64,000 nucleotides of DNA, from the sequence record OZ035785.1, one strand, 5' to 3'. The notes under the pieces were generated by a model. The model was not told where the DNA came from and did no database searches. It saw nothing but the letters and a program-made list of their open reading frames with translations. Numbering within the stretch: the stretch's first letter is position 1; each line of letters opens with the position of its first letter. The position numbers were made by a program, and so were the translations under genes. The DNA is from Tequatrovirus BCH953P2. Positions 16,082 through 64,000 of the stretch are shown piece after piece.

Positions 16082-16942
16082 TTACACCGCCATCTTTCCT
16101 TTAATAGGAGGATGTGATACATAGTTGTTAAGAACGAAATCTTTAGGCCTAAGTTTAAGAACATATTTTAATTGTTCTTTAGTAGAAAGATATCGGAATT
16201 TATAAGGTAGACCACTTATTACCAGCTCACAAAGCTCTTTAGGTTCACGACGCAAAATTTCTTTACATTGTTCTACGTGATTCATATAGATATGAGTATT
16301 ACCGCCAGAAAATATCAAATCTCCCGGAATAAGATTACACATCTTAGCTACAATATGAACTAACGCAGCGTATGATGCAATATTGAATGGCAAGCCCAAG
16401 AACACGTCAACACTTCTTTGATACCACTGTAAATCCAAATGGCCATTACGAACATTAAATTGATAAAACATATGACAAGGCGGTAATGCCATCTGCTTGA
16501 GTTCAGCTGGATTCCATGCTGAAACAATTTGACGCCTATCATTTGGCAGTTTTTTAATACGATCAATAACTTCTATAATTTGGTCTACACCGCCAAAATC
16601 ACGCCATTGTTTTCCATAAATTGGACCAAGTTCACCACTATGGTATCCTAAATCTTTTGCTTGATTTTCGTAATTTTCATCCCAGACTGTTTTGCCTTGG
16701 ATTAACGAATCATGCTGAATTAATCGTAAATCATTGACATTTGTGCTTCCTGATAAAAACCATATTAACTCAGAAATGCAAGCTTTCCAGGCGAGCTTTT
16801 TAGTTGTTACTGCAGGAAAACCTTTGGTTAAATCCCAACGCAATTTAGTACCGAACAAAGCAATTGTTCCTGTGCCTGTTCGGTCATCAGTTTCATAGCC
16901 ATTTTCAAAAATGTCTTTAATTAAATCTTGGTATTGTTTCAT
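16082..16942 (-). CDS. td: thymidylate synthase (intron-free)
   Basis: Continuous 286-aa ORF with the ThyA active-site region ALPPCH; no interruption. Confidence 0.95.
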
Positions 16943-27936: not shown

Positions 27937-28626
27937 ATGGCTGATTTAAAAGTAGGTTCAACAACTGGAGGCTCTGTCATTTGGCATCAAGGAAATTTTC
28001 CATTGAATCCAGCCGGTGACGATGTACTCTATAAATCATTTAAAATATATTCAGAATATAACAAACCACAGGCAGCTGATAACGATTTCGTTTCTAAAGC
28101 TAATGGTGGCACAGATTCTCAAGGTTTCCAAAAAGAAGTAGAATTTAAAAAAGGTGTTAAGATTTCTACAACGTTTTCTGGCGGTTCAAACCTGAATGGG
28201 TTATATTCTGGCAATGGAGATGGAGCTTCCAGAGAAAAAGCTAACATGGATTTACATTCATGGTACGGCATTGGTATTTGGAACTCATGCACAGGTGATG
28301 GGATCCAGGGACGCACAATCTGGTTTAATGCCAGGCGTGGTACAGTTGAAACAGTTGGCGATATTGTTTCAAGCCGACAAGTTATTTCTAATGCTTCAGG
28401 ACCGACCGGCCCAGCACACTTAACTCGTAAAGATTATGTTGATGGAGCAATAAATACTGTTATGGCAAATGCAAACTCTAGAGTGTTGCGTTCTGGCGAC
28501 ACTATGACAGGTAATTTAACGGCGCCAAACTTTTTCTCACAGAATCCTGCATCTCAACCTTCACATGTTCCACGATTTGACCAAATCGTAATTAAGGATT
28601 CTGTTCAAGATTTCGGCTATTATTAA
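27937..28626 (+). CDS. 36: long tail fibre distal connector gp36
   Basis: 229 aa between gp35 and gp37. Confidence 0.85.
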
Positions 28627-28634
28627 GAGGACTT

Positions 28635-31600
28635 ATGGCTACTTTAAAACAAATACAATTTAAAAGAAGCAAAACCGCAGGTGCACGTCCTGCTGCTTCA
28701 GTATTAGCCGAAGGTGAATTGGCTATAAACTTAAAAGATAGAACAATTTTTACTAAAGATGATTCAGGAAATATCATTGATCTAGGTATTGCTAAAGGCG
28801 GCCAGGTTGATGGTGATGTAACTATCAACGGTAAATTAACATTAAATGGCGCGTATGTTCAGACGCTGGCTGGTATTAATACTACGGGTGGTATTAATTC
28901 TGGAGCCGCTATAAGTGCAACAACTTATTATGCTCGGTCTGGTTCTTTTTATGCTCGTGCTCCAGATGCCAATGCGAATACACATGTTTGGTTTGAAAAT
29001 AACAATGGTATAGAACGTGGTGTGATTTGGGCTGTTCCGAACACTTCAGACCTAGGCTCGGTACGTATTCGAGCAAAAACTGCAGGTGGTGTTTTTGCTG
29101 GCGAGTACAGTTTCCGCTCTGACGGCCAATTTGATGTTCCTGTAGCAGTTAAAATCGGCGGAGCAGCGATGCTAACCAAAGATGGCAACATTACCTCTGG
29201 TTCTATGTTTGGCGGTAACCTTAACAACTATTTGACTTCTATTAAAAATGACATTGTTGCCGGTGATAATAAGAAAGTAAGTAAAACCGGTGACACGATG
29301 TCCGGTAACTTGACTATTAACGCTAACTTAAAAGTCGAAAACTCTAATGGAACGTTTGTTGATTTAGGTTCAGAGAACTCTGATAAGTATAGCAGATTAA
29401 CTCTTGCTCGTAAAATTGGCGATGGCGCTGGTGTAGCAATGCTTAAAGTTACTCCTGAAGGAAACGTGCAATTTGGTTATCAATCTACAGTTGCTACTCC
29501 ATCTCCTACCAAGTATATTCTAATTAAACCTAAGGGTCTTGAAGTAGAAGGTGATTTAGTTTTTAAGCAAACTTATCGTGGTGTTGAAGAAGCATTTGAT
29601 ATTACTGATCAGACTATTGACCTTAATAGCCTTATTATTAGAGCATCAGATTTAGGTACTCGTAAGCTGTATAAATGCAGATCATCTGGAGGTGGTTCTA
29701 ATATATTGAACAAACCTACATCTGACGGCAACTTTACTCTTGAAGTTCTGTCTTTACGCAAGGTTTCTGATACCGATTGGTCATGTAAGCAGACCTTTAC
29801 TACAAAGAACAATAATGTTGTAGGCGTATATGTTCGCTACGGGCAAGGCGGCTCATGGTCTGCATGGCAAGAAGTTGTATCTGGCGTTCAGCCAATTAAT
29901 TTAGGTGGTACTGGAGCAACTTCTGCAGCTGCTGCCCGTAATAACCTTGGTGTTGGTGCAGGCCAAACTGTAACATTCGGTAATTTAGTTACCACCGATT
30001 TAACCGTAAATGGAAATGCTAGATTAGTCGGAAGACTGAACTTTGGTTCTAATTCTCAGTCGGCTGGTGTATTACGAGCCAACGAAGGTGGGGCTGTTGT
30101 TTTAGGTTCTGCAATTGGTGCAAACATCCACATCAGAGCAGGAAGCGGCGATACTTCTACAGGTGAAACTCGCTTTGAGCCAAATGGTAACGTTGTAGTT
30201 AGTGGTGCTATTACAGCATCTCGGTCTATTACAGTTAATACTGCCGCTGATGCTATTATTATTAATGCTCCAACGCAAGAGTCTTCTAACTTCATCCAAG
30301 GACGTAAAGCCAATGTTAATAAATGGTATGTGGGTATTGTCTCCGAAGGGGATATGGTACGTCTACATAACCAAGTATATTCTCACGGTATTGCATTAAA
30401 CTCTGATACTGTCGATATTACTAAGCCTCTTAAAGTTGGAAATGTCAAACTAGGAACTGATGGTAATATCACCGGTGGTTCTGGCAATTTTTCTAACTTG
30501 AACACAACATTAAACCGTAAAGTTAATGTTGGCGTATGGTCAGGTACCACTAAAACAGTAGGCTGGTACTGGTACAAATTTGCTACTGTAACAATGCCAC
30601 AATCTACATCTACCGCGCGTTTCAAAATTATCGGCGGGAATGGTTATAATGCTAATTCTCCTGAACAAGCATCTGTAAGTGAAATTGTTCTTAGAACTGG
30701 TAATAATAATCCTAAATCTATTAATGCGGTGCTGTGGTCTAGCACTAGTACCAGCCCGTCAAACATTGCTACAGTGAATACATCTGGCGATGATTATGAT
30801 GTATATGTATACATGGGCTCTTTTGCCCAATCTTTATTAGTTGAATATGATGCTACAGTGAATATTAGCAATATTTCGGTAATCGGTCTTAATGGTGCAT
30901 CTCAATCACCGGTAGAAGAATTACCTGCAGACCATGTACTTGGACACGTGTATAAGATGTATTCCGATGCTCAGATACCTTATCCGGTCGGTGCTCCAAT
31001 TCCATGGCCACGTGATTCAATTCCTGATGGATTTGCTTTAATGGAAGGCCAGACCTTTGATAAGTCTGCATATCCAAAGCTAGCTATAGCGTATCCTGGT
31101 GGTGTTATTCCTGATATGCGAGGCCAGACTATTAAGGGTAAACCGAGCGGTCGTGCTGTGTTGAGTGCTGAAGCTGATGGTATTAAGTCCCATACCCATA
31201 TTGCCTCAGCATCCACTACTGCTTTGTCTGGTACTACAAGCGCTACTGATTTAGGGACTAAAACTGTTAGTACAACAGATCTAGGCCGTAAACATACTAA
31301 CACCGCTGGTGCACATACTCATACAGTATCCGGTACAACGAGTACTGACGGTAGGCACGCACACACTGCTTCACTTGGTAACAACGCTAACGTTCAGTCC
31401 GGTAGATTTGCAGCATCCAATTCCGGTCAGACAGCAACGACATGGACAAACGAGGATGGTCTACACTCACACACGTGGTCAGGTACTACGTCAGTAGGTC
31501 CAGAGCACAGTCACTATACTGATATCGGTACACATAACCATACGGTGGCTATAGGTTCACATACTCACACGTTTTCTATTGCTGCTCATGACCATACGAT

Positions 31601-31676
31601 TACTGTAAATAGTACAGGTAATACAGAAAACACGGTTAAAAACATTGCTTTTAACTACATCGTTCGTTTAGCATAA
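28635..31676 (+). CDS. 37: long tail fibre distal subunit gp37 (receptor-binding tip)
   Basis: 1013 aa; C-terminal His-x-His repeat region (HTHT, HNHT, HDHT). Confidence 0.9.
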
Positions 31677-31706
31677 GGAGAGGGGCTTCGGCCCCTTCTA
31701 AATATG
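31675..31706 (+). promoter_or_regulatory. Shine-Dalgarno / hairpin / AUG initiation structure of gene 38
   Basis: AAGGAG, then hairpin aggggc-ttcg-gcccct, then ATG 23 nt downstream. Confidence 0.6.
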
Positions 31707-32255
31707 AAAATCTATCATTATTATTTTGACACGAAAGAATTTTACAAAGAAGAAAATTACAAACCGATTAAAGGCATTGGTCTTCCTGCTCATTCAACAA
31801 ATAAAAAACCTTTAGATCCTAAAGAAGGATACGCAGTTGTATTTGATGAACGTACTCAGGATTGGATTTATGAAGAAGACCATCGTGGTAAACGAGCATG
31901 GACTTTTAATAAAGAAGAAATTTTTATAAGTGACATTGGAAGCCCGGTTGGTATAACCTTTGATGAGCCCGGCGAATTTGATATATGGACTGATGATGGC
32001 TGGAAAGAAGACGAAACATATAAACGTGTTTTAATTCGTAATAGAAAAATTGAAGAATTATATAGAGAGTTCCAAGTTTTAAATAATATGATTGAAGCTT
32101 CTGTCGCCAATAAAAAGGAAAAATTCTATTATAAAAACCTTAAGCGGTTCTTTGCTCTTTTAGAAAAACATGAGCATTTAGGTGGTGAATTCCCTGCATG
32201 GCCTGAAAAAGAACAGAAGCCTTGGTATAAGCGTTTATTCAAGCATTACGTATAA
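31704..32255 (+). CDS. 38: tail fibre assembly chaperone gp38 (T4 type)
   Basis: 183 aa MKIYHYYFDTKEFYKEENYKP, T4-type rather than the T2-type adhesin. Confidence 0.85.
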   Translation: MKIYHYYFDTKEFYKEENYKPIKGIGLPAHSTNKKPLDPKEGYAVVFDERTQDWIYEEDHRGKRAWTFNKEEIFISDIGSPVGITFDEPGEFDIWTDDGWKEDETYKRVLIRNRKIEELYREFQVLNNMIEASVANKKEKFYYKNLKRFFALLEKHEHLGGEFPAWPEKEQKPWYKRLFKHYV

Positions 32256-38269: not shown

Positions 38270-38328
38270 ATTAATTTCCTCTAATTATTTTCTACTCCAA
38301 GGCCGCATGAATACACACGGCCGATAAA

Positions 38329-39221: not shown

Positions 39222-39485
39222 TCATAGTTCAATCTCAGCGATTTTCATTTCATTACTATTAATAGCCGCTTTAAGACTATCTGAAAGAATTACATTCCAG
39301 TGGTCATTCATATGACCATTAACTAAGCGTGTAATTTCTTCGGGAGTTGAAAAATAAGGCGTATCAGACTCCCAATGCGATAGTCCCAAGCGAGTATAAA
39401 TCATGCCTTCATCATCGCTAGAATATTCAACTGACACAAACTCATCAGTTATTTTATGTTTAGCGTAATAAAATTTAAATTTCAT
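39222..39485 (-). CDS. hypothetical protein
   Basis: 87 aa from the ATG at 39483-39485 with GGAGGAG Shine-Dalgarno. Confidence 0.4.
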   Translation of the reverse strand: MKFKFYYAKHKITDEFVSVEYSSDDEGMIYTRLGLSHWESDTPYFSTPEEITRLVNGHMNDHWNVILSDSLKAAINSNEMKIAEIEL

Positions 39486-48037: not shown

Positions 48038-48110
48038 AATTATCTCTCACTTGTTAAAAAGATTTTATACTCCACAGGACCATTATACTCTGGTCCCAAG
48101 AGTTTGTAAA

Positions 48111-48659
48111 CTAGCTTACACGAACATTAATCACTGCGCTACGAGGAACTACAGAGTATTCTCCAGCATGAACTACGTTCAGAAGTTCAACGCCATCTTC
48201 AATCCACTGGTCTGTTACCCAACCACAGATAGGATTATCAAAAGGACGACGGATAGACACAGCAGCACACAACAGGTCTGTAGGGTCTTGTTCTTCAACT
48301 TCTTGGAACAGGATGAACTCATCTTCATAAACCAGGTTTTTCTTTATTTTGTTATTATCTAACCGGCGACCGTGGATGACGTAAGATTTGTCAAACCACT
48401 CACTTTTGGCAAATTCTTCAACAATAAATTCGCCTTCGCCAAAAACATCAGTCAGAGTTTTATGACCAGAAATCAAGGCATTAGTTTTAATTTTAGGTTC
48501 AACCAGTTTGTAGGTTTTGCCGATTTCAATAGCGGTAGTCATAATAGGTTCCTTAATTTCCAGTGGTTTAACAGGGCATACATAAGTGCTTACAACATCA
48601 AAATCAATCAGTTTAGCTACCGGATTTGGTATGTATTCAGGATTATAATTAAATTTCAT
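48111..48659 (-). CDS. MotB paralog (shared C-terminal TDQW.EDGV domain)
   Basis: C-terminus CGWVTDQWIEDGVELLNVVHAGEYSVVP aligns with the MotB C-terminus. Confidence 0.5.
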   Translation of the reverse strand: MKFNYNPEYIPNPVAKLIDFDVVSTYVCPVKPLEIKEPIMTTAIEIGKTYKLVEPKIKTNALISGHKTLTDVFGEGEFIVEEFAKSEWFDKSYVIHGRRLDNNKIKKNLVYEDEFILFQEVEEQDPTDLLCAAVSIRRPFDNPICGWVTDQWIEDGVELLNVVHAGEYSVVPRSAVINVRVS

Positions 48660-57517: not shown

Positions 57518-58022
57518 TATCTTGACGTTCAAAATTATGTTTATTTTTCAAATAATAAAGTTTAAAGATTTCTTCCGCATTCATTCCAAGGCCAGCAAAC
57601 ATATTTAATACGAAATGAAATATATCCACAAGCTCAAATTTAATTTCGAGCTGATCTTCTGGGGACATTTCATCAATGCGTTTTTCTTGCGCTTCAATAT
57701 AACGTGCTTTCCATTTTTTCCAAACTGCCGATGCATCTTTTTCACCACGTGACATTTCACCAAGAGAAGTCAGAAGTTCGCGGAATTCATCATCAATACA
57801 GTCTTTTTGTTCACGCATCCAAGAAACAACATCACCGGCAGTTTCTAATTTATCTGGATGATAACAGTATTCGCGGTCATTTGCTAAACGAATCTGCAGA
57901 GACTTCTGCATGTCAAGCATTACCTGCAGCGGGTCTTTTTCATCACCGAGAATATCCCAGTATTCATTTTGAGCTTTATCAGCGCCTTCGATCAGTTGAC
58001 TACATTCGTTGAAATATGCCAT
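57507..58022 (-). CDS. 56: dCTP pyrophosphatase gp56
   Basis: 171 aa from MAYFNECSQ (track start is TTG); MazG-like. Confidence 0.8.
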   Translation of the reverse strand: MAYFNECSQLIEGADKAQNEYWDILGDEKDPLQVMLDMQKSLQIRLANDREYCYHPDKLETAGDVVSWMREQKDCIDDEFRELLTSLGEMSRGEKDASAVWKKWKARYIEAQEKRIDEMSPEDQLEIKFELVDIFHFVLNMFAGLGMNAEEIFKLYYLKNKHNFERQDNGY

Positions 58023-59521: not shown

Positions 59522-59722
59522 ATGGTACAAAAATTAATGGCACTTGTTAATGCCATCAAAGGTAATAAAAAGCGTATAGCTTTTACTATTTCTGCTATGG
59601 TAGGAATTTTACTCTGGAACTTTATTTTATCACCTGTTGCAATTGCGCACGGTGTTAATATTCCAATAGTTACTCTTGATACATTCGTAGATTTAGCATT
59701 TGCTTTAGTTGGGTTAATTTAA
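59522..59722 (+). CDS. small membrane protein, divergently transcribed
   Basis: 66 aa; AAAGGAGG Shine-Dalgarno 5 nt before the ATG; two predicted TM helices; 3' end overlaps the primase stop convergently. Confidence 0.5.
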   Translation: MVQKLMALVNAIKGNKKRIAFTISAMVGILLWNFILSPVAIAHGVNIPIVTLDTFVDLAFALVGLI

Positions 59723-60747
59723 ATCTTAGCATATTTAGATAGCCGCATTTTAGCCATTAACCCCTGGGCAATATTATTTTTCATATATTCCATAATTTGT
59801 TCAGGGGTTGCACCTTCCTTTTTAATCATATCATTAACATCTTTTGATTTCCAGGGAGATTTATCCCAAAACATAACCCTTTCTCCTGCATCAACTAATT
59901 TAGTCATTCGTTTGATAGTGTCAGGGTGACGAGGTTCATTATCTAAGACCCACACTCGTCTATCTTTAAATGGAACAATTTCTAGGTCTAATTGACCACC
60001 CGTAATAGCTATACCATTTTCAATAAAAAGTGAATCTATAGGTCCTTCTAGAACATATACATCACCATCTTTAACTCGTTCGACTCCATAGATTTTTGTT
60101 GCCTCAGGATAAGCTTTGATGGTGATATATTTTTGAGGAGCATCTTTCTTTAATGCACGTCCTTGAAAAGACTCAGCTTTTCCATTAGCATTATAAATTG
60201 GAATAACAAGACGAGGCTCAGGTATTTCCTTTTTATATGTTCCCGGTGCTATGCTATTAACCAATTTAGGCCATTCGGTTGTAAACCAAAGATATTTCCA
60301 TTTATCCTTTGGAATACAACGAGCTTTTACGTATTTTATAATTGGATGGTCTTCCGCCAGTTTATCTAATCTAACACATGACGGAAGAGATTTAATTATT
60401 TTCTTCTCAGGTTGTTTAGGAAGTTCTTTAGGTTTTTCTACTGGACGACTTTTACCTTTTTCTTTTCTTATTTCAAAGATATACTCACGATATAAATCAG
60501 GTTCAAACTCCTTTAAATATATTCCGATTGGTGCATGATAGTTACAGTTATAACAATGAATATTTCCTTCATTATTATCACCATAATACCATCCACGGGC
60601 TTTATTCTGGTCGGTTTTTGAATCTCCACAAACTGGGCATCTAAACCGTAATTTAAAAGTTGAACTATTATTTACTTGTGTGAATTTAGGTAAATGAGCT
60701 AATGCACGGTATGCAAACTCATTATCAATCCAAGGTATTGATGACAT
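59719..60747 (-). CDS. 61: DNA primase gp61
   Basis: 342 aa; zinc ribbon CPVCGDS...CYNC and TOPRIM-like region. Confidence 0.9.
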   Translation of the reverse strand: MSSIPWIDNEFAYRALAHLPKFTQVNNSSTFKLRFRCPVCGDSKTDQNKARGWYYGDNNEGNIHCYNCNYHAPIGIYLKEFEPDLYREYIFEIRKEKGKSRPVEKPKELPKQPEKKIIKSLPSCVRLDKLAEDHPIIKYVKARCIPKDKWKYLWFTTEWPKLVNSIAPGTYKKEIPEPRLVIPIYNANGKAESFQGRALKKDAPQKYITIKAYPEATKIYGVERVKDGDVYVLEGPIDSLFIENGIAITGGQLDLEIVPFKDRRVWVLDNEPRHPDTIKRMTKLVDAGERVMFWDKSPWKSKDVNDMIKKEGATPEQIMEYMKNNIAQGLMAKMRLSKYAKI

Positions 60748-60749
60748 TT

Positions 60750-60914
60750 TTACTCTTCTTTTTCTTTAGATTCCTCTTTTTTCTTTTTAGGAATCTGTTC
60801 AGGACCTTTATTTACTACAGCGCCTGACGTTGTTCCAGTAGAGATATTTTCAGGACTACCACCTGAATCTCCAGCGACCATATCTTCTTTGATAAATTCT
60901 TTATATGTTTTCAT
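60750..60914 (-). CDS. small charged protein (61.1 position)
   Basis: 54-aa ATG ORF with a Lys/Glu-rich tail. Confidence 0.4.
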   Translation of the reverse strand: MKTYKEFIKEDMVAGDSGGSPENISTGTTSGAVVNKGPEQIPKKKKEESKEKEE

Positions 60915-60915
60915 A

Positions 60916-61242
60916 TTAACCTCTATTCATAAAAGCATTAAAAATTTGGTCATCAATAGATGGTGCAGTAATATTTTCTGCATCATTTAGCAAATCATTA
61001 ATTTCATCAGATAGCATAACACGTGTACCTTTATTTCCTGTAATTGTTACTGCGCAATTACGAACGTTTTCTTTATTAAATTTTAGGTTAATATTTTCGT
61101 AATGAAAATCCTTTAATGCTGAATATATTTTTAAAATAAAATTATCTTTTACTACAATAAACCCAACCTCACTATTAAAACGTGGTTCATGGAAACTGTA
61201 ATAAACCTTTTCATCTATAAAATCGTATGATTTTTTCCATTT
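60916..61242 (-). pseudogene. start-less paralog remnant of the adjacent 210-aa gene
   Basis: 109-codon open frame bounded by stops with no ATG/GTG/TTG upstream of residue 76; C-terminus SIDDQIFNAFMNRG and core EP.F...VGFIVVKDN.I match the 61271..61903 product. Confidence 0.5.
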
Positions 61243-61270
61243 TTAAATATGAAAATTCAAACTATACATA

Positions 61271-61903
61271 TTAACCTTTATTCATAAAAGCATTAAAAAT
61301 TTGATCGTCAATAGAAACTTTTACTTTAGGCTGTTCTTCAAACGGTAATTCATATCCACATATTACAATTTTGTGATCGATACCAAAATACACAGAAGCA
61401 ATATTATTAATATTATTTTCAGTGAAATCTAAATCAACATCAATATCTTTTTGACTAACGCTCAAAGGATAATTAATACGAATAATTCGATTATCTTTAA
61501 CAAAGATTCCACCGACATACTCTGTGCTGCGTTTAAAGTTTACACGTTTCCTAAATGAAAAATATTCAGGTTCTTTATGGGCTCGACTCATAGGGCTTAA
61601 AGTGTATTCCGAATATGAAATATCAAATCCTACACCTTCAATATGAGCCAAAGTATCATGATTAAACCAATTATAATCGTATGCCAAATCCATTAAATTG
61701 TAATATGTGAAAGGCACCGGATTAACATCATATGTTGTACCTTTAAAATCTGCCCAGGCAACGATTTCGTTATCTTTAACAATTACAAAAATTGTGCCAA
61801 TAAGATATCTACGGTTATTTTCATCAGGTGTTATATTATAACATTGTGCATCAGGAAATTTACCGTATTTAAACGGTGGATTTTTGTGCATATAATAAAT
61901 CAT
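61271..61903 (-). CDS. hypothetical protein with internal duplication (61.2 position)
   Basis: 210 aa; motif G.IFV.VKDN.I occurs twice. Confidence 0.5.
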   Translation of the reverse strand: MIYYMHKNPPFKYGKFPDAQCYNITPDENNRRYLIGTIFVIVKDNEIVAWADFKGTTYDVNPVPFTYYNLMDLAYDYNWFNHDTLAHIEGVGFDISYSEYTLSPMSRAHKEPEYFSFRKRVNFKRSTEYVGGIFVKDNRIIRINYPLSVSQKDIDVDLDFTENNINNIASVYFGIDHKIVICGYELPFEEQPKVKVSIDDQIFNAFMNKG

Positions 61904-61904
61904 A

Positions 61905-62198
61905 TTATTCGCCTGTGATTTCGGTTACGATATTTTTGTTATTAAAGTTTTTATCGCAATACAGAACATAATTATACTGCATTACACCACCAGACTTAAG
62001 CTGTTTTTGCACTTCAGCTTTCATTTCAGGACGATCGCGCTCAACGATATTCATAATATCTGCTTCAATTTGGGTTTCAACCTCAGTCTGATCTGCAGTC
62101 ATAGACCATTCACATAAATCTTTATCATAGCCTGCCATAGCAGGCTGAGCAGCACAAGAAGCTAAAGCAAAAATTGTAGCAAAGATAAATTTTTTCAT
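61905..62198 (-). CDS. sp: Spackle periplasmic protein (superinfection exclusion / lysozyme inhibitor)
   Basis: 97 aa with cleavable signal peptide MKKFIFATIFALASCAAQPAMA. Confidence 0.75.
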   Translation of the reverse strand: MKKFIFATIFALASCAAQPAMAGYDKDLCEWSMTADQTEVETQIEADIMNIVERDRPEMKAEVQKQLKSGGVMQYNYVLYCDKNFNNKNIVTEITGE

Positions 62199-62758: not shown

Positions 62759-64000
62759 CTAAAATTTTAATTCATTTGCCAAAGCATCTAACTGAGCTCG
62801 AGCTGATTCGTTTCTTTGATAGCGATTCTGTTCAGCCTGAATCTGTTGTGAACCTGCTACTTCGTTCACTTCAGTTGGAGTAGAATCTTGTTCAATTTCT
62901 ACCCATTTCTGATTTCCCTTTTGAACACCCATCAAAAACTTATTCCATTTGTTCTTATCGCCATATCGTGATTTGATTTGCTTAATGAGTTGTTGTTCAG
63001 CAGCTGCTAGCTCCTCGGTTTCAATGACCGCAAGCATAAAATCAGCTGTTGCTGGAAGACCAGCAGATTCTGCAATATCGCTCATGTTAACATCGGAAGA
63101 GTCCCAAGCTTGTTTACCAACCTGTGCTGCAGTCCAAAGAACAGTTTCGGTTTCAACAGCCAGAGCACGCAATTCCTCGGCAATAGCTTTAACAGTTGTG
63201 TAACTATTTTCTGAATAAACTCTAATGCGGCAAGATTTACAAATACCTAGATAGTCGACAATAATGATTGTTGGAACAAAATTCTTCTTGAGCTTCAATT
63301 CGTTTAAAAGTGATCGAAATGTATTAGCGTCTGCTCCACCAGTAGGATACTGTTTAACGATTAAACGACCAAGGGTAGATTTCTCACGCCATTTTTCCAT
63401 TTTTCCTTTATATTCAGCGTAAGAAATATGTCCATCATCAATATCGTCAAGAGAAACATCGAGCATGTTAGCATCAATACGTTTAGCACAGACTTCTTCT
63501 GCCATTTCCATGGAGATATAAAGAACGTTATGACCAAGCTGCAAATAATCTGCTGCTAATGAACAAAGTCCTAATGATTTACCAACGTTAACGCCAGCCA
63601 TTAAAACGTTCAGTGTTCCAGTCTCAGCTCCGCCTTTAGTAATTTTGTTTAGAATTCTGAGTTTAAATGGAACCTTACGAGCTTTATTCATATAAGATAG
63701 CCAACGCGCTTCGTAGTCATCCATCCAATCATGACCAACGTAACTATCAAATGAAATAGATAATGCCTGGCGCATGATGTCAGGAATAGCACCTACATCT
63801 GGCATTTTCTTATTTCGTTTTTCCGGAGGAAGCTCAGCATTAGTTTGAATTTCGATTATTTTAGACGTAGCATTAAACATCGCCCTTTGCTGAACATATT
63901 TTTCTGTTTCTTTTATTAACCAACTGTGGTCTTCCGGAGAATCAGCCAGTTTTGAAATAAGTGTTTTTACACCAGAATATTCTGTTTCAGTAAATGAACT
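62759..64000 (-). CDS. 41: replicative DNA helicase gp41 (DnaB family), C-terminal about 413 aa; 5' end beyond window
   Basis: Frame open to the window end; Walker A GVNVGKS; upstream translation continues ...SWLVKETEKYVQQRAMFNATSK. Confidence 0.9.
   Translation of the reverse strand, partial: SSFTETEYSGVKTLISKLADSPEDHSWLIKETEKYVQQRAMFNATSKIIEIQTNAELPPEKRNKKMPDVGAIPDIMRQALSISFDSYVGHDWMDDYEARWLSYMNKARKVPFKLRILNKITKGGAETGTLNVLMAGVNVGKSLGLCSLAADYLQLGHNVLYISMEMAEEVCAKRIDANMLDVSLDDIDDGHISYAEYKGKMEKWREKSTLGRLIVKQYPTGGADANTFRSLLNELKLKKNFVPTIIIVDYLGICKSCRIRVYSENSYTTVKAIAEELRALAVETETVLWTAAQVGKQAWDSSDVNMSDIAESAGLPATADFMLAVIETEELAAAEQQLIKQIKSRYGDKNKWNKFLMGVQKGNQKWVEIEQDSTPTEVNEVAGSQQIQAEQNRYQRNESARAQLDALANELKF

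Follow-up and report, generated by a model that had tools for sequence, protein, structure and literature searches.

Gene content of the locus

The window analysed here is a 64,000-nt stretch of sequence record OZ035785.1 from a Tequatrovirus (T4-like phage), and the genes between 59.7 and 63.9 kb all lie on its minus strand in T4 order. Gene 41 (62759-63880) is followed by dmd (Pfam Dmd), 61.4/tifA (DUF7279), sp (spackle; 61905-62198, Pfam T4_Spackle), adfA (61271-61903), gene 61.1 (60750-60914; 54 aa) and the primase gene 61 (59719-60747), which makes this the dmd/tifA/adfA anti-toxin region; the initial annotation had correctly placed the feature beside a 61.2-like gene and next to dmd. T4 gene 61.2 is adfA (PMC9391042, PMC11257639), and its counterpart in the window, immediately downstream of sp, encodes a 210-aa anti-DarT factor A that matches the Pfam AdfA family (PF23813) over its full length with 462 bits.

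Between adfA and 61.1 lies a 355-bp stretch without an ORF of annotated size, which we interpret below as a disrupted copy of a 118-aa gene, hereafter referred to as p118. The ATG of 61.1 is located 1 nt past the p118 stop codon, and the 61.1 Shine-Dalgarno sequence (AGAGG) falls inside the final p118 codons. The arrangement TAATATG (stop, 1 nt, start) occurs at three consecutive boundaries of this gene run, sp/adfA (61903-61905), adfA/p118 (61267-61273) and p118/61.1 (60912-60918). A search for RNA elements with Rfam returned no match at E<=1 in the region, where neither a relevant tandem repeat nor a terminator was found and promoter-like matches stayed at background level.

A disrupted p118 reading frame

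The minus-strand frame at 60916-61242 comprises 108 sense codons and a stop. As the initial annotation had stated, no ATG, GTG or TTG precedes residue 76; the first such codon lies at 61017 and opens a 33-aa ORF (60916-61017, minus strand), the p118 frame having no other ORF that begins with a start codon. This ORF includes the conserved tail and scores 19.8 bits against Pfam AdfA, under the gathering cutoff of 27 bits. Upstream, the frame continues, interrupted once by a TAA (61243-61245), as far as an ATG at 61269. This ATG follows the adfA stop with 1 nt in between, the TAATATG layout being that of the 61.1 junction. Its translation, its alignment to phages AV119 and NR1 and the phrog_4122 profile identify the whole feature (60916-61269, minus strand) as a disrupted copy of a short AdfA-family paralogue, reading ATG, seven codons, TAA and 108 codons where an intact relative has 357 nt. 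It combines a disabling lesion with the lack of an alternative in-frame start, as is characteristic of a pseudogene.

The closest phage records (AV119, NR1, Lutter and others) are 98-99% identical to the window over 1.3 kb, and the remnant DNA is 97-99% identical to the genes annotated in AV119, NR1 and Lutter. Against the eroding duplication proposed in the initial annotation, which had itself named an intact gene in relatives as the finding that would refute it, AV119 and NR1 both carry an annotated 357-nt CDS with a canonical ATG at exactly the p118 position of the window. Alignment revealed that the only frame-altering differences of the window copy from these two genes are a -1 and a -2 deletion. 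The first removes a C in codon 4 (61259/61260, minus strand; AGTTCTGAA in the relatives, AGTTTGAA in the window) and starts the frameshift, the premature TAA stands at codon 9 within the shifted 10-codon segment, and the second removes TT near codon 14 (61229/61230, minus strand; AAAAAATTTCA in the relatives, AAAAAATCA in the window), after which the original frame returns. The intervening 29 nt match the relatives exactly but are out of frame, TAA included, and the ATG at 61269 and the remainder of the gene are otherwise unaltered. Translation from this ATG yields MYSLNFHI, a stop and KWKKSYDFIDEK... (KWKKSYDF...), where the intact proteins read MYSSEFSYLKMEKISYDF...; the 357-nt CDS encodes MYSSEFSYLKMEKISYDFIDEK...

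The window copy differs from AV119 by three substitutions in 354 nt, all in the remaining 108 codons, and the remnant matches the phrog_4122 profile at positions 13-118 of 118 (5e-63), next to 4.4e-72 over positions 1-118 for the intact ortholog. What the initial annotation had called erosion is thus confined to the small 1-nt and 2-nt losses close to the 5' end of p118. In the history that we propose, the 1-nt deletion in codon 4 would have shifted the frame onto the TAA at codon 9, and the 2-nt deletion 30 nt downstream would have brought the original frame back, leaving 108 intact-looking codons without a usable start. Because the TAA sits between the deletions, neither order of events would rescue translation, and since the rest of the gene has no extra decay, the knock-out, if real, would be very recent.

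The restored and undecayed downstream frame, together with the conserved C-terminal motif retained by the 33-aa ORF, could also suggest that the gene is still expressed by a non-standard route, be it initiation at a codon other than ATG, GTG or TTG, readthrough of the TAA or reinitiation after it, or synthesis of the 33-aa peptide from the ATG at 61017. We regard such expression as very improbable, given that the ATG directly following the TAA lies in another frame and meets a stop after nine codons, that the lost or scrambled residues include a predicted beta-strand (residues 8-17), that the 33-aa product would be devoid of the entire beta-sheet, and that the relatives all use a plain ATG and none of them such a route. 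Translational bypass was also considered and rejected, as the sequence contains no matching take-off/landing pair.

Distribution of p118 among related phages

The body of p118 is present in 298 INPHARED records, including that of T2. The same gene is found in databases as phrog_4122, RB32ORF033c and HY01_0032, a Tequatrovirus 'hypothetical protein'; the phrog_4122 members are intact 118-aa ORFs, whereas the window copy, disrupted by its two deletions (-1 and -2) and by the codon-9 TAA, has no translatable 5' end. In a spread sample searched with tblastn, 53 of 54 Tequatrovirus-type copies (~98%) align unbroken from residue 1, and pairwise dN/dS values of 0.03-0.32 among intact copies indicate purifying selection. 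Homologues with 45% protein identity occur in Mosigvirus-like genomes.

Three natural arrangements of the locus can be distinguished: sp-adfA-61.1, sp-adfA-p118-61.1 and sp-p118-61.1. T4, which has no p118, represents the first, with adfA abutting 61.1, and T2 the last, with p118 directly after sp and no adfA. The T2 arrangement agrees with the published statement that this phage naturally lacks adfA (PMC11257639); the same adfA survey treats T2, which carries only p118, as being without an adfA homologue (PMC11257639). 

Annotation of these genes is uneven across records. p118 is mislabelled gp61.2 in T2 (MH751506.1, 1501-1857) and PP01, it appears as 'major capsid domain-containing protein' in several records (HY01, teqdroes and JLBYU being among those with inconsistent p118 labels), and in APTC-EC-2A adfA is labelled 'spackle protein'. 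In L004 the sp/p118 junction reads AGAGGTTAGTATG, near the tail junction AGAGGTTAATATG.

Origin of the two deletions

The broken allele is private to the window. A reading in which the phage has an intact p118, and the 1-nt and 2-nt gaps are base-calling or consensus errors, is consistent with the intact sequence seen in every close relative, including all three contigs whose AdfA protein is exactly that of the window (Lutter and two Logan assemblies; adjacent 118-aa gene intact in 3/3). Neither deletion was found in any other INPHARED record, and the double-deletion allele did not turn up when IMG/VR, JGI metagenomes and GTDB genomes were scanned for the exact pattern. The three missing nucleotides of p118 are the only gaps in 4.2-4.5 kb alignments to the two Logan contigs and AV119 (the 5.2-kb alignment of Lutter to the window has five gaps). 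Moreover, -1 and -2 sum to -3 within 30 nt of an A/T-rich, low-complexity stretch, an odd coincidence for independent mutations, and the few substitutions noted above leave p118 undecayed elsewhere, as errors of this kind would.

The losses, on the other hand, are not typical homopolymer miscounts, consisting of a lone C between Ts and a reduction of TTT to T. Over ~45 kb aligned to AV119, the p118 deletions are the sole clean frameshifting indels in real coding sequence, the remaining 'frameshift' gaps falling between genes, forming pairs that reflect alignment noise in divergent segments or, at 38285, preceding the true ndd start; the assembly is thus not prone to indels in general, which speaks for a real mutation. 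At least two further records contain a broken copy, indicating that loss of p118 occurs or is reported elsewhere: in ESh36 (ON528746.1, UNVERIFIED, 1835-2191) the gene is broken near its 3' end with the tail out of frame, and in 121/2022-2B (OR958571.1, 91661-91973) the p118 tblastn match falls into two pieces spanning 313 nt. On balance we consider an artefact unlikely, although it keeps an appreciable share of the probability.

If the lesion is real, selection could have favoured it, for example where p118 is sensed by a host defence, or in the course of passage or engineering in the laboratory. Two disabling hits in one small gene, with none in the 45 kb of other coding sequence, and the position of this gene in an anti-toxin island whose content varies among phages would be in keeping with adaptive loss. 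A single disabling mutation would nevertheless be enough to achieve it, no literature was found tying p118 to any defence system, and neutral loss of an accessory gene fits the data equally well, so that we deem adaptive loss improbable. The reading that we prefer, drawn from sequence comparison, is that the window probably carries a common 118-residue AdfA-paralogous gene knocked out by two deletions, with the direct repeat representing a shared gene tail whose copies may recombine. The loss itself may be a routine case of decay in an accessory gene, or perhaps an error of sequencing.

Relationship of p118 to AdfA

The initial annotation had noted that the translation of the open frame resembles the C-terminal half of the 210-aa protein, and profile and pairwise searches bear this out. 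Against Pfam AdfA, intact p118 scores 32.2 bits (profile positions 113-211) and the window remnant 31.3 bits (positions 126-211), both above the 27-bit cutoff and in both cases over the C-terminal half only. In BLASTP, the intact ortholog and the window AdfA are 37% identical across 106 residues (E=4e-11), and the match stands at E=1e-4 once the 14 identical residues at the end are trimmed off; similarly, the hhalign probability for the pair is 98% when the tail is included, and without the tail the alignment covers 56 columns with P=0.002. Sequence support for paralogy outside the tail is accordingly modest.

Structure prediction revealed a similar relationship. The AF2 model of p118 (pLDDT 80, pTM 0.70) consists of five strands, a helix, a strand and two helices, and includes at high confidence an N-terminal strand specific to p118. 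The AF2 model of AdfA is mediocre (pLDDT 67.6), but repeats the p118 order of elements in residues 100-207 and shows a similar strand-helix pattern in residues 2-77. Foldseek searches of BFVD linked p118 with two proteins, one AdfA-like and 212 aa long (E=5e-5), the other a 145-aa member of phrog_8539 (E=9e-5), whereas no similar protein was found among solved structures. AdfA and p118 share the beta-hairpin motif G.I.VKDN.I, a helix containing the specificity residue equivalent to RB69 R164, and the identical C-terminal SIDDQIFNAFMN.G, and they are neighbours in one operon-like run between sp and 61.1. In contrast to the two-domain architecture of AdfA (~210 aa), p118 has 118 aa and one domain, a single five-strand sheet plus helices, and corresponds to profile positions ~113-211 only. 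Binding and neutralisation of a DarT toxin are known for RB69 AdfA(R164H); neither DarT binding nor another activity has been reported for p118. As judged from sequence, p118 is a single-domain paralogue of the AdfA C-terminal domain and not an AdfA orthologue.

According to the initial annotation, the motif G.IFV.VKDN.I occurs twice in the 210-aa protein. This is approximately right: the AdfA hairpin motif reads GTIFVIVKDNEI at residues 36-47, and its second copy, GGIFVKDNRI at residues 131-140, is two residues shorter. BLASTP of the N-terminal against the C-terminal half of AdfA, run as a search for internal duplication, returned no match, and hhalign aligned the 11-column hairpin alone (P=0.003). 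Together with the model, the hairpin pair is suggestive of an AdfA built by internal duplication of two p118-like modules.

The open frame had also been described by the initial annotation as a partial duplication in the course of erosion. A disabled paralogue of the C-terminal half of 61.2 is indeed present; it is not a duplication in situ, the body DNA of the two genes being 45% identical. A recent partial tandem duplication of the 61.2-like 3' half, now decaying and with the repeats as its boundaries, would explain why the translation is like the C-terminal half of the neighbour and why the last 49 nt are near-identical. Outside the tail, though, the DNA is no more alike than the 45% just given for the aligned part of 61.2, and p118 constitutes a full-length separate family (phrog_4122, 118 aa) with its own N-terminal strand in a high-confidence model. 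The gene is furthermore intact in ~300 phages, exists without adfA in T2, is under purifying selection and has its 45%-identical protein homologues in Mosigvirus-like genomes. These comparative data refute a recent duplication, which we regard as hardly credible.

Published two-hybrid data indicate that the R164H change in RB69 AdfA, placing His at residue 164, enables DarT1 binding (PMC11257639); residue 164 is reported to determine whether DarT1 is neutralised. RB69 R164 aligns with H in T4, with N167 in the window AdfA and with Asn in p118, the His variant at this position being present in neither window protein. Codon 167 of the window adfA (61403-61405, minus strand) lies in the context NINNIAS, compared with NINRIAS in RB69 and IINHIAS in T4; on sequence grounds, Asn at this position would be a third allele.

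A third gene family with this C-terminal tail, phrog_8539 (145-146 aa, from Mosigvirus-like T-even phages), resembles p118 in its DDQIFNAFM tail and in its position downstream of sp, differs in yielding no significant sequence match beyond the tail (Pfam AdfA 16 bits, tail only), and is absent from the window. In Mosigvirus-like IMG/VR contigs (L006:1424-2357, L007 and L012:1623-2063) it is found downstream of sp with the DDQIFNAFM tail, in L006 and L007 followed in tandem by a p118 homologue, such that one C-terminal module is common to two or three unrelated-looking genes.

The 49-nt direct repeat

The direct repeat adjoining the 61.2-like gene was confirmed by a repeat search and is longer than the 45 bp first reported. 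Two copies of 49 nt, at 60912-60960 and 61267-61315, match at 46 of 49 positions with a spacing of 355 bp, the extra length arising because both copies also have in common CAT, which is the start codon (ATG) of the gene downstream, and one base of the spacer. A degenerate search found exactly two copies in the 64 kb, and none in 100 shuffles. The first copy (61267-61315) comprises the adfA 3' end (SIDDQIFNAFMNKG and stop; last 14 codons), a 1-nt spacer and the p118 ATG, and the second (60912-60960) the p118 3' end (SIDDQIFNAFMNRG and stop), a 1-nt spacer and the 61.1 ATG. The repeat encodes the C-terminal motif SIDDQIFNAFMN(K/R)G, that is, S-I-D-D-Q-I-F-N-A-F-M-N-(K/R)-G, followed by the stop, one base and ATG; it ends in a stop/Shine-Dalgarno/start junction, A[GA]AGGTTAATATG, that joins each gene to the next, with the Shine-Dalgarno sequence of the next gene (AAAGG or AGAGG) within its last codons.

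Within one genome, adfA and p118 share 45% nucleotide identity in the body and 93% in the tail (aligned codons), and the third base is the same at identical residues in 10/26 cases in the body and 11/13 in the tail (Fisher p=0.008). In the few genomes compared, tails of the same genome differ by 1-3 nt (7 in L006), while orthologous tails of Tequatrovirus-like and Mosigvirus-like phages are 5-8 nt apart. From near-identity at synonymous sites, and from a likeness that is greater within genomes than between genera, we infer that the copies may recombine. Likeness of the DNA beyond coding need suggests, from sequence, that they may undergo gene conversion; the overlapping Shine-Dalgarno and start constraint could account for the last ~15 nt of the repeat. 

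The repeat is the shared C-terminal tail of the family plus a gene junction, and not duplication debris. Its copies would recombine and mediate gain and loss of the 355-357-bp p118 cassette, which would fit the three natural arrangements described above. Genomes with and without this unit, joined exactly within the repeat, were found. The T4 adfA tail is exactly the variant found on p118 in the window, and both T4 and L008 have adfA joined straight to 61.1 via a single repeat copy of the window-p118 type, which is what a 355-357-bp deletion inside the repeat would leave. A K-type tail directly before 61.1 was observed in none of >480 records, and an R-type tail before p118 is present in APTC-EC-2A and ESh36; the absence of K tails before 61.1 is explained equally well by selection on the ribosome-binding site and by a history of recombination.

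The initial annotation had pointed to amplification of this region in T4 under toxin-antitoxin pressure and proposed that the repeats could promote recombination. T4 does amplify dmd-tifA under toxIN pressure, recombining at 6-10-bp microhomologies (PMC9391042), so the statement holds for the dmd-tifA part of the region and fails for this repeat, which is not the sequence used. As recombination in T4 proceeds here at 6-10 bp, a 49-nt repeat would be ample substrate, making the proposed role plausible. The window resembles the T4 short-homology system in that a small cassette in this part of the genome is bordered by direct repeats, that natural genomes exist with and without the cassette, and that a tail variant keeps to the position by 61.1. 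It differs in that the published T4 amplifications concern dmd-tifA via other microhomologies and not adfA/p118, and the window itself contains no amplification or deletion junction.

Implications for the anti-toxin region

A broken p118 carries little weight on its own, being a lesion in one genome and in an uncharacterised accessory gene. Its identification nonetheless allows p118 to be named a single-domain AdfA-family paralogue in the dmd-tifA-sp-adfA anti-toxin island. T2, described as being without adfA, carries p118 at the same place, and the 49-nt tails offer a ready substrate for loss or amplification of cassettes. By analogy with AdfA, p118 is a reasonable candidate counter-defence gene, and we infer that the intact protein may be a small toxin-binding counter-defence protein like AdfA, with another target specificity. 

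A wider and more speculative extension of the same analogy, which we would rate as rather unlikely as a whole, is that AdfA, p118 and the 145-aa protein form a T-even family of AdfA-like modules. The DDQIFNAFM helix would then be functional, for example in toxin binding, and would at the same time serve as a recombination handle by which single-domain inhibitor cassettes are swapped, lost or multiplied inside the anti-toxin island; p118 would act on its own as an inhibitor of a toxin, DarT-like or otherwise, and the knock-out seen here would result from a trade-off in host range.

Other differences from phage AV119

The alignment of the window to AV119 displayed several further features. A candidate second frameshift, in ndd at 38285, was rejected, the 1-nt difference lying upstream of the true ndd start (MKYMTV...); the AV119 ndd CDS (site L019:24457) is over-extended from a GTG, and ndd is intact in the window. 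Short, strongly divergent mosaic patches with compensating gap clusters lie at 57590-57965, 16150-16215, 39280-39320 and 48110-48135, inside genes that are otherwise 96-97% identical, such as the gene 56 dCTPase region. The segment at 28112-32252 shows almost no alignment to AV119 and, by its AV119 position, corresponds to the distal tail-fibre region; it has likely been exchanged and is likely to determine host range.
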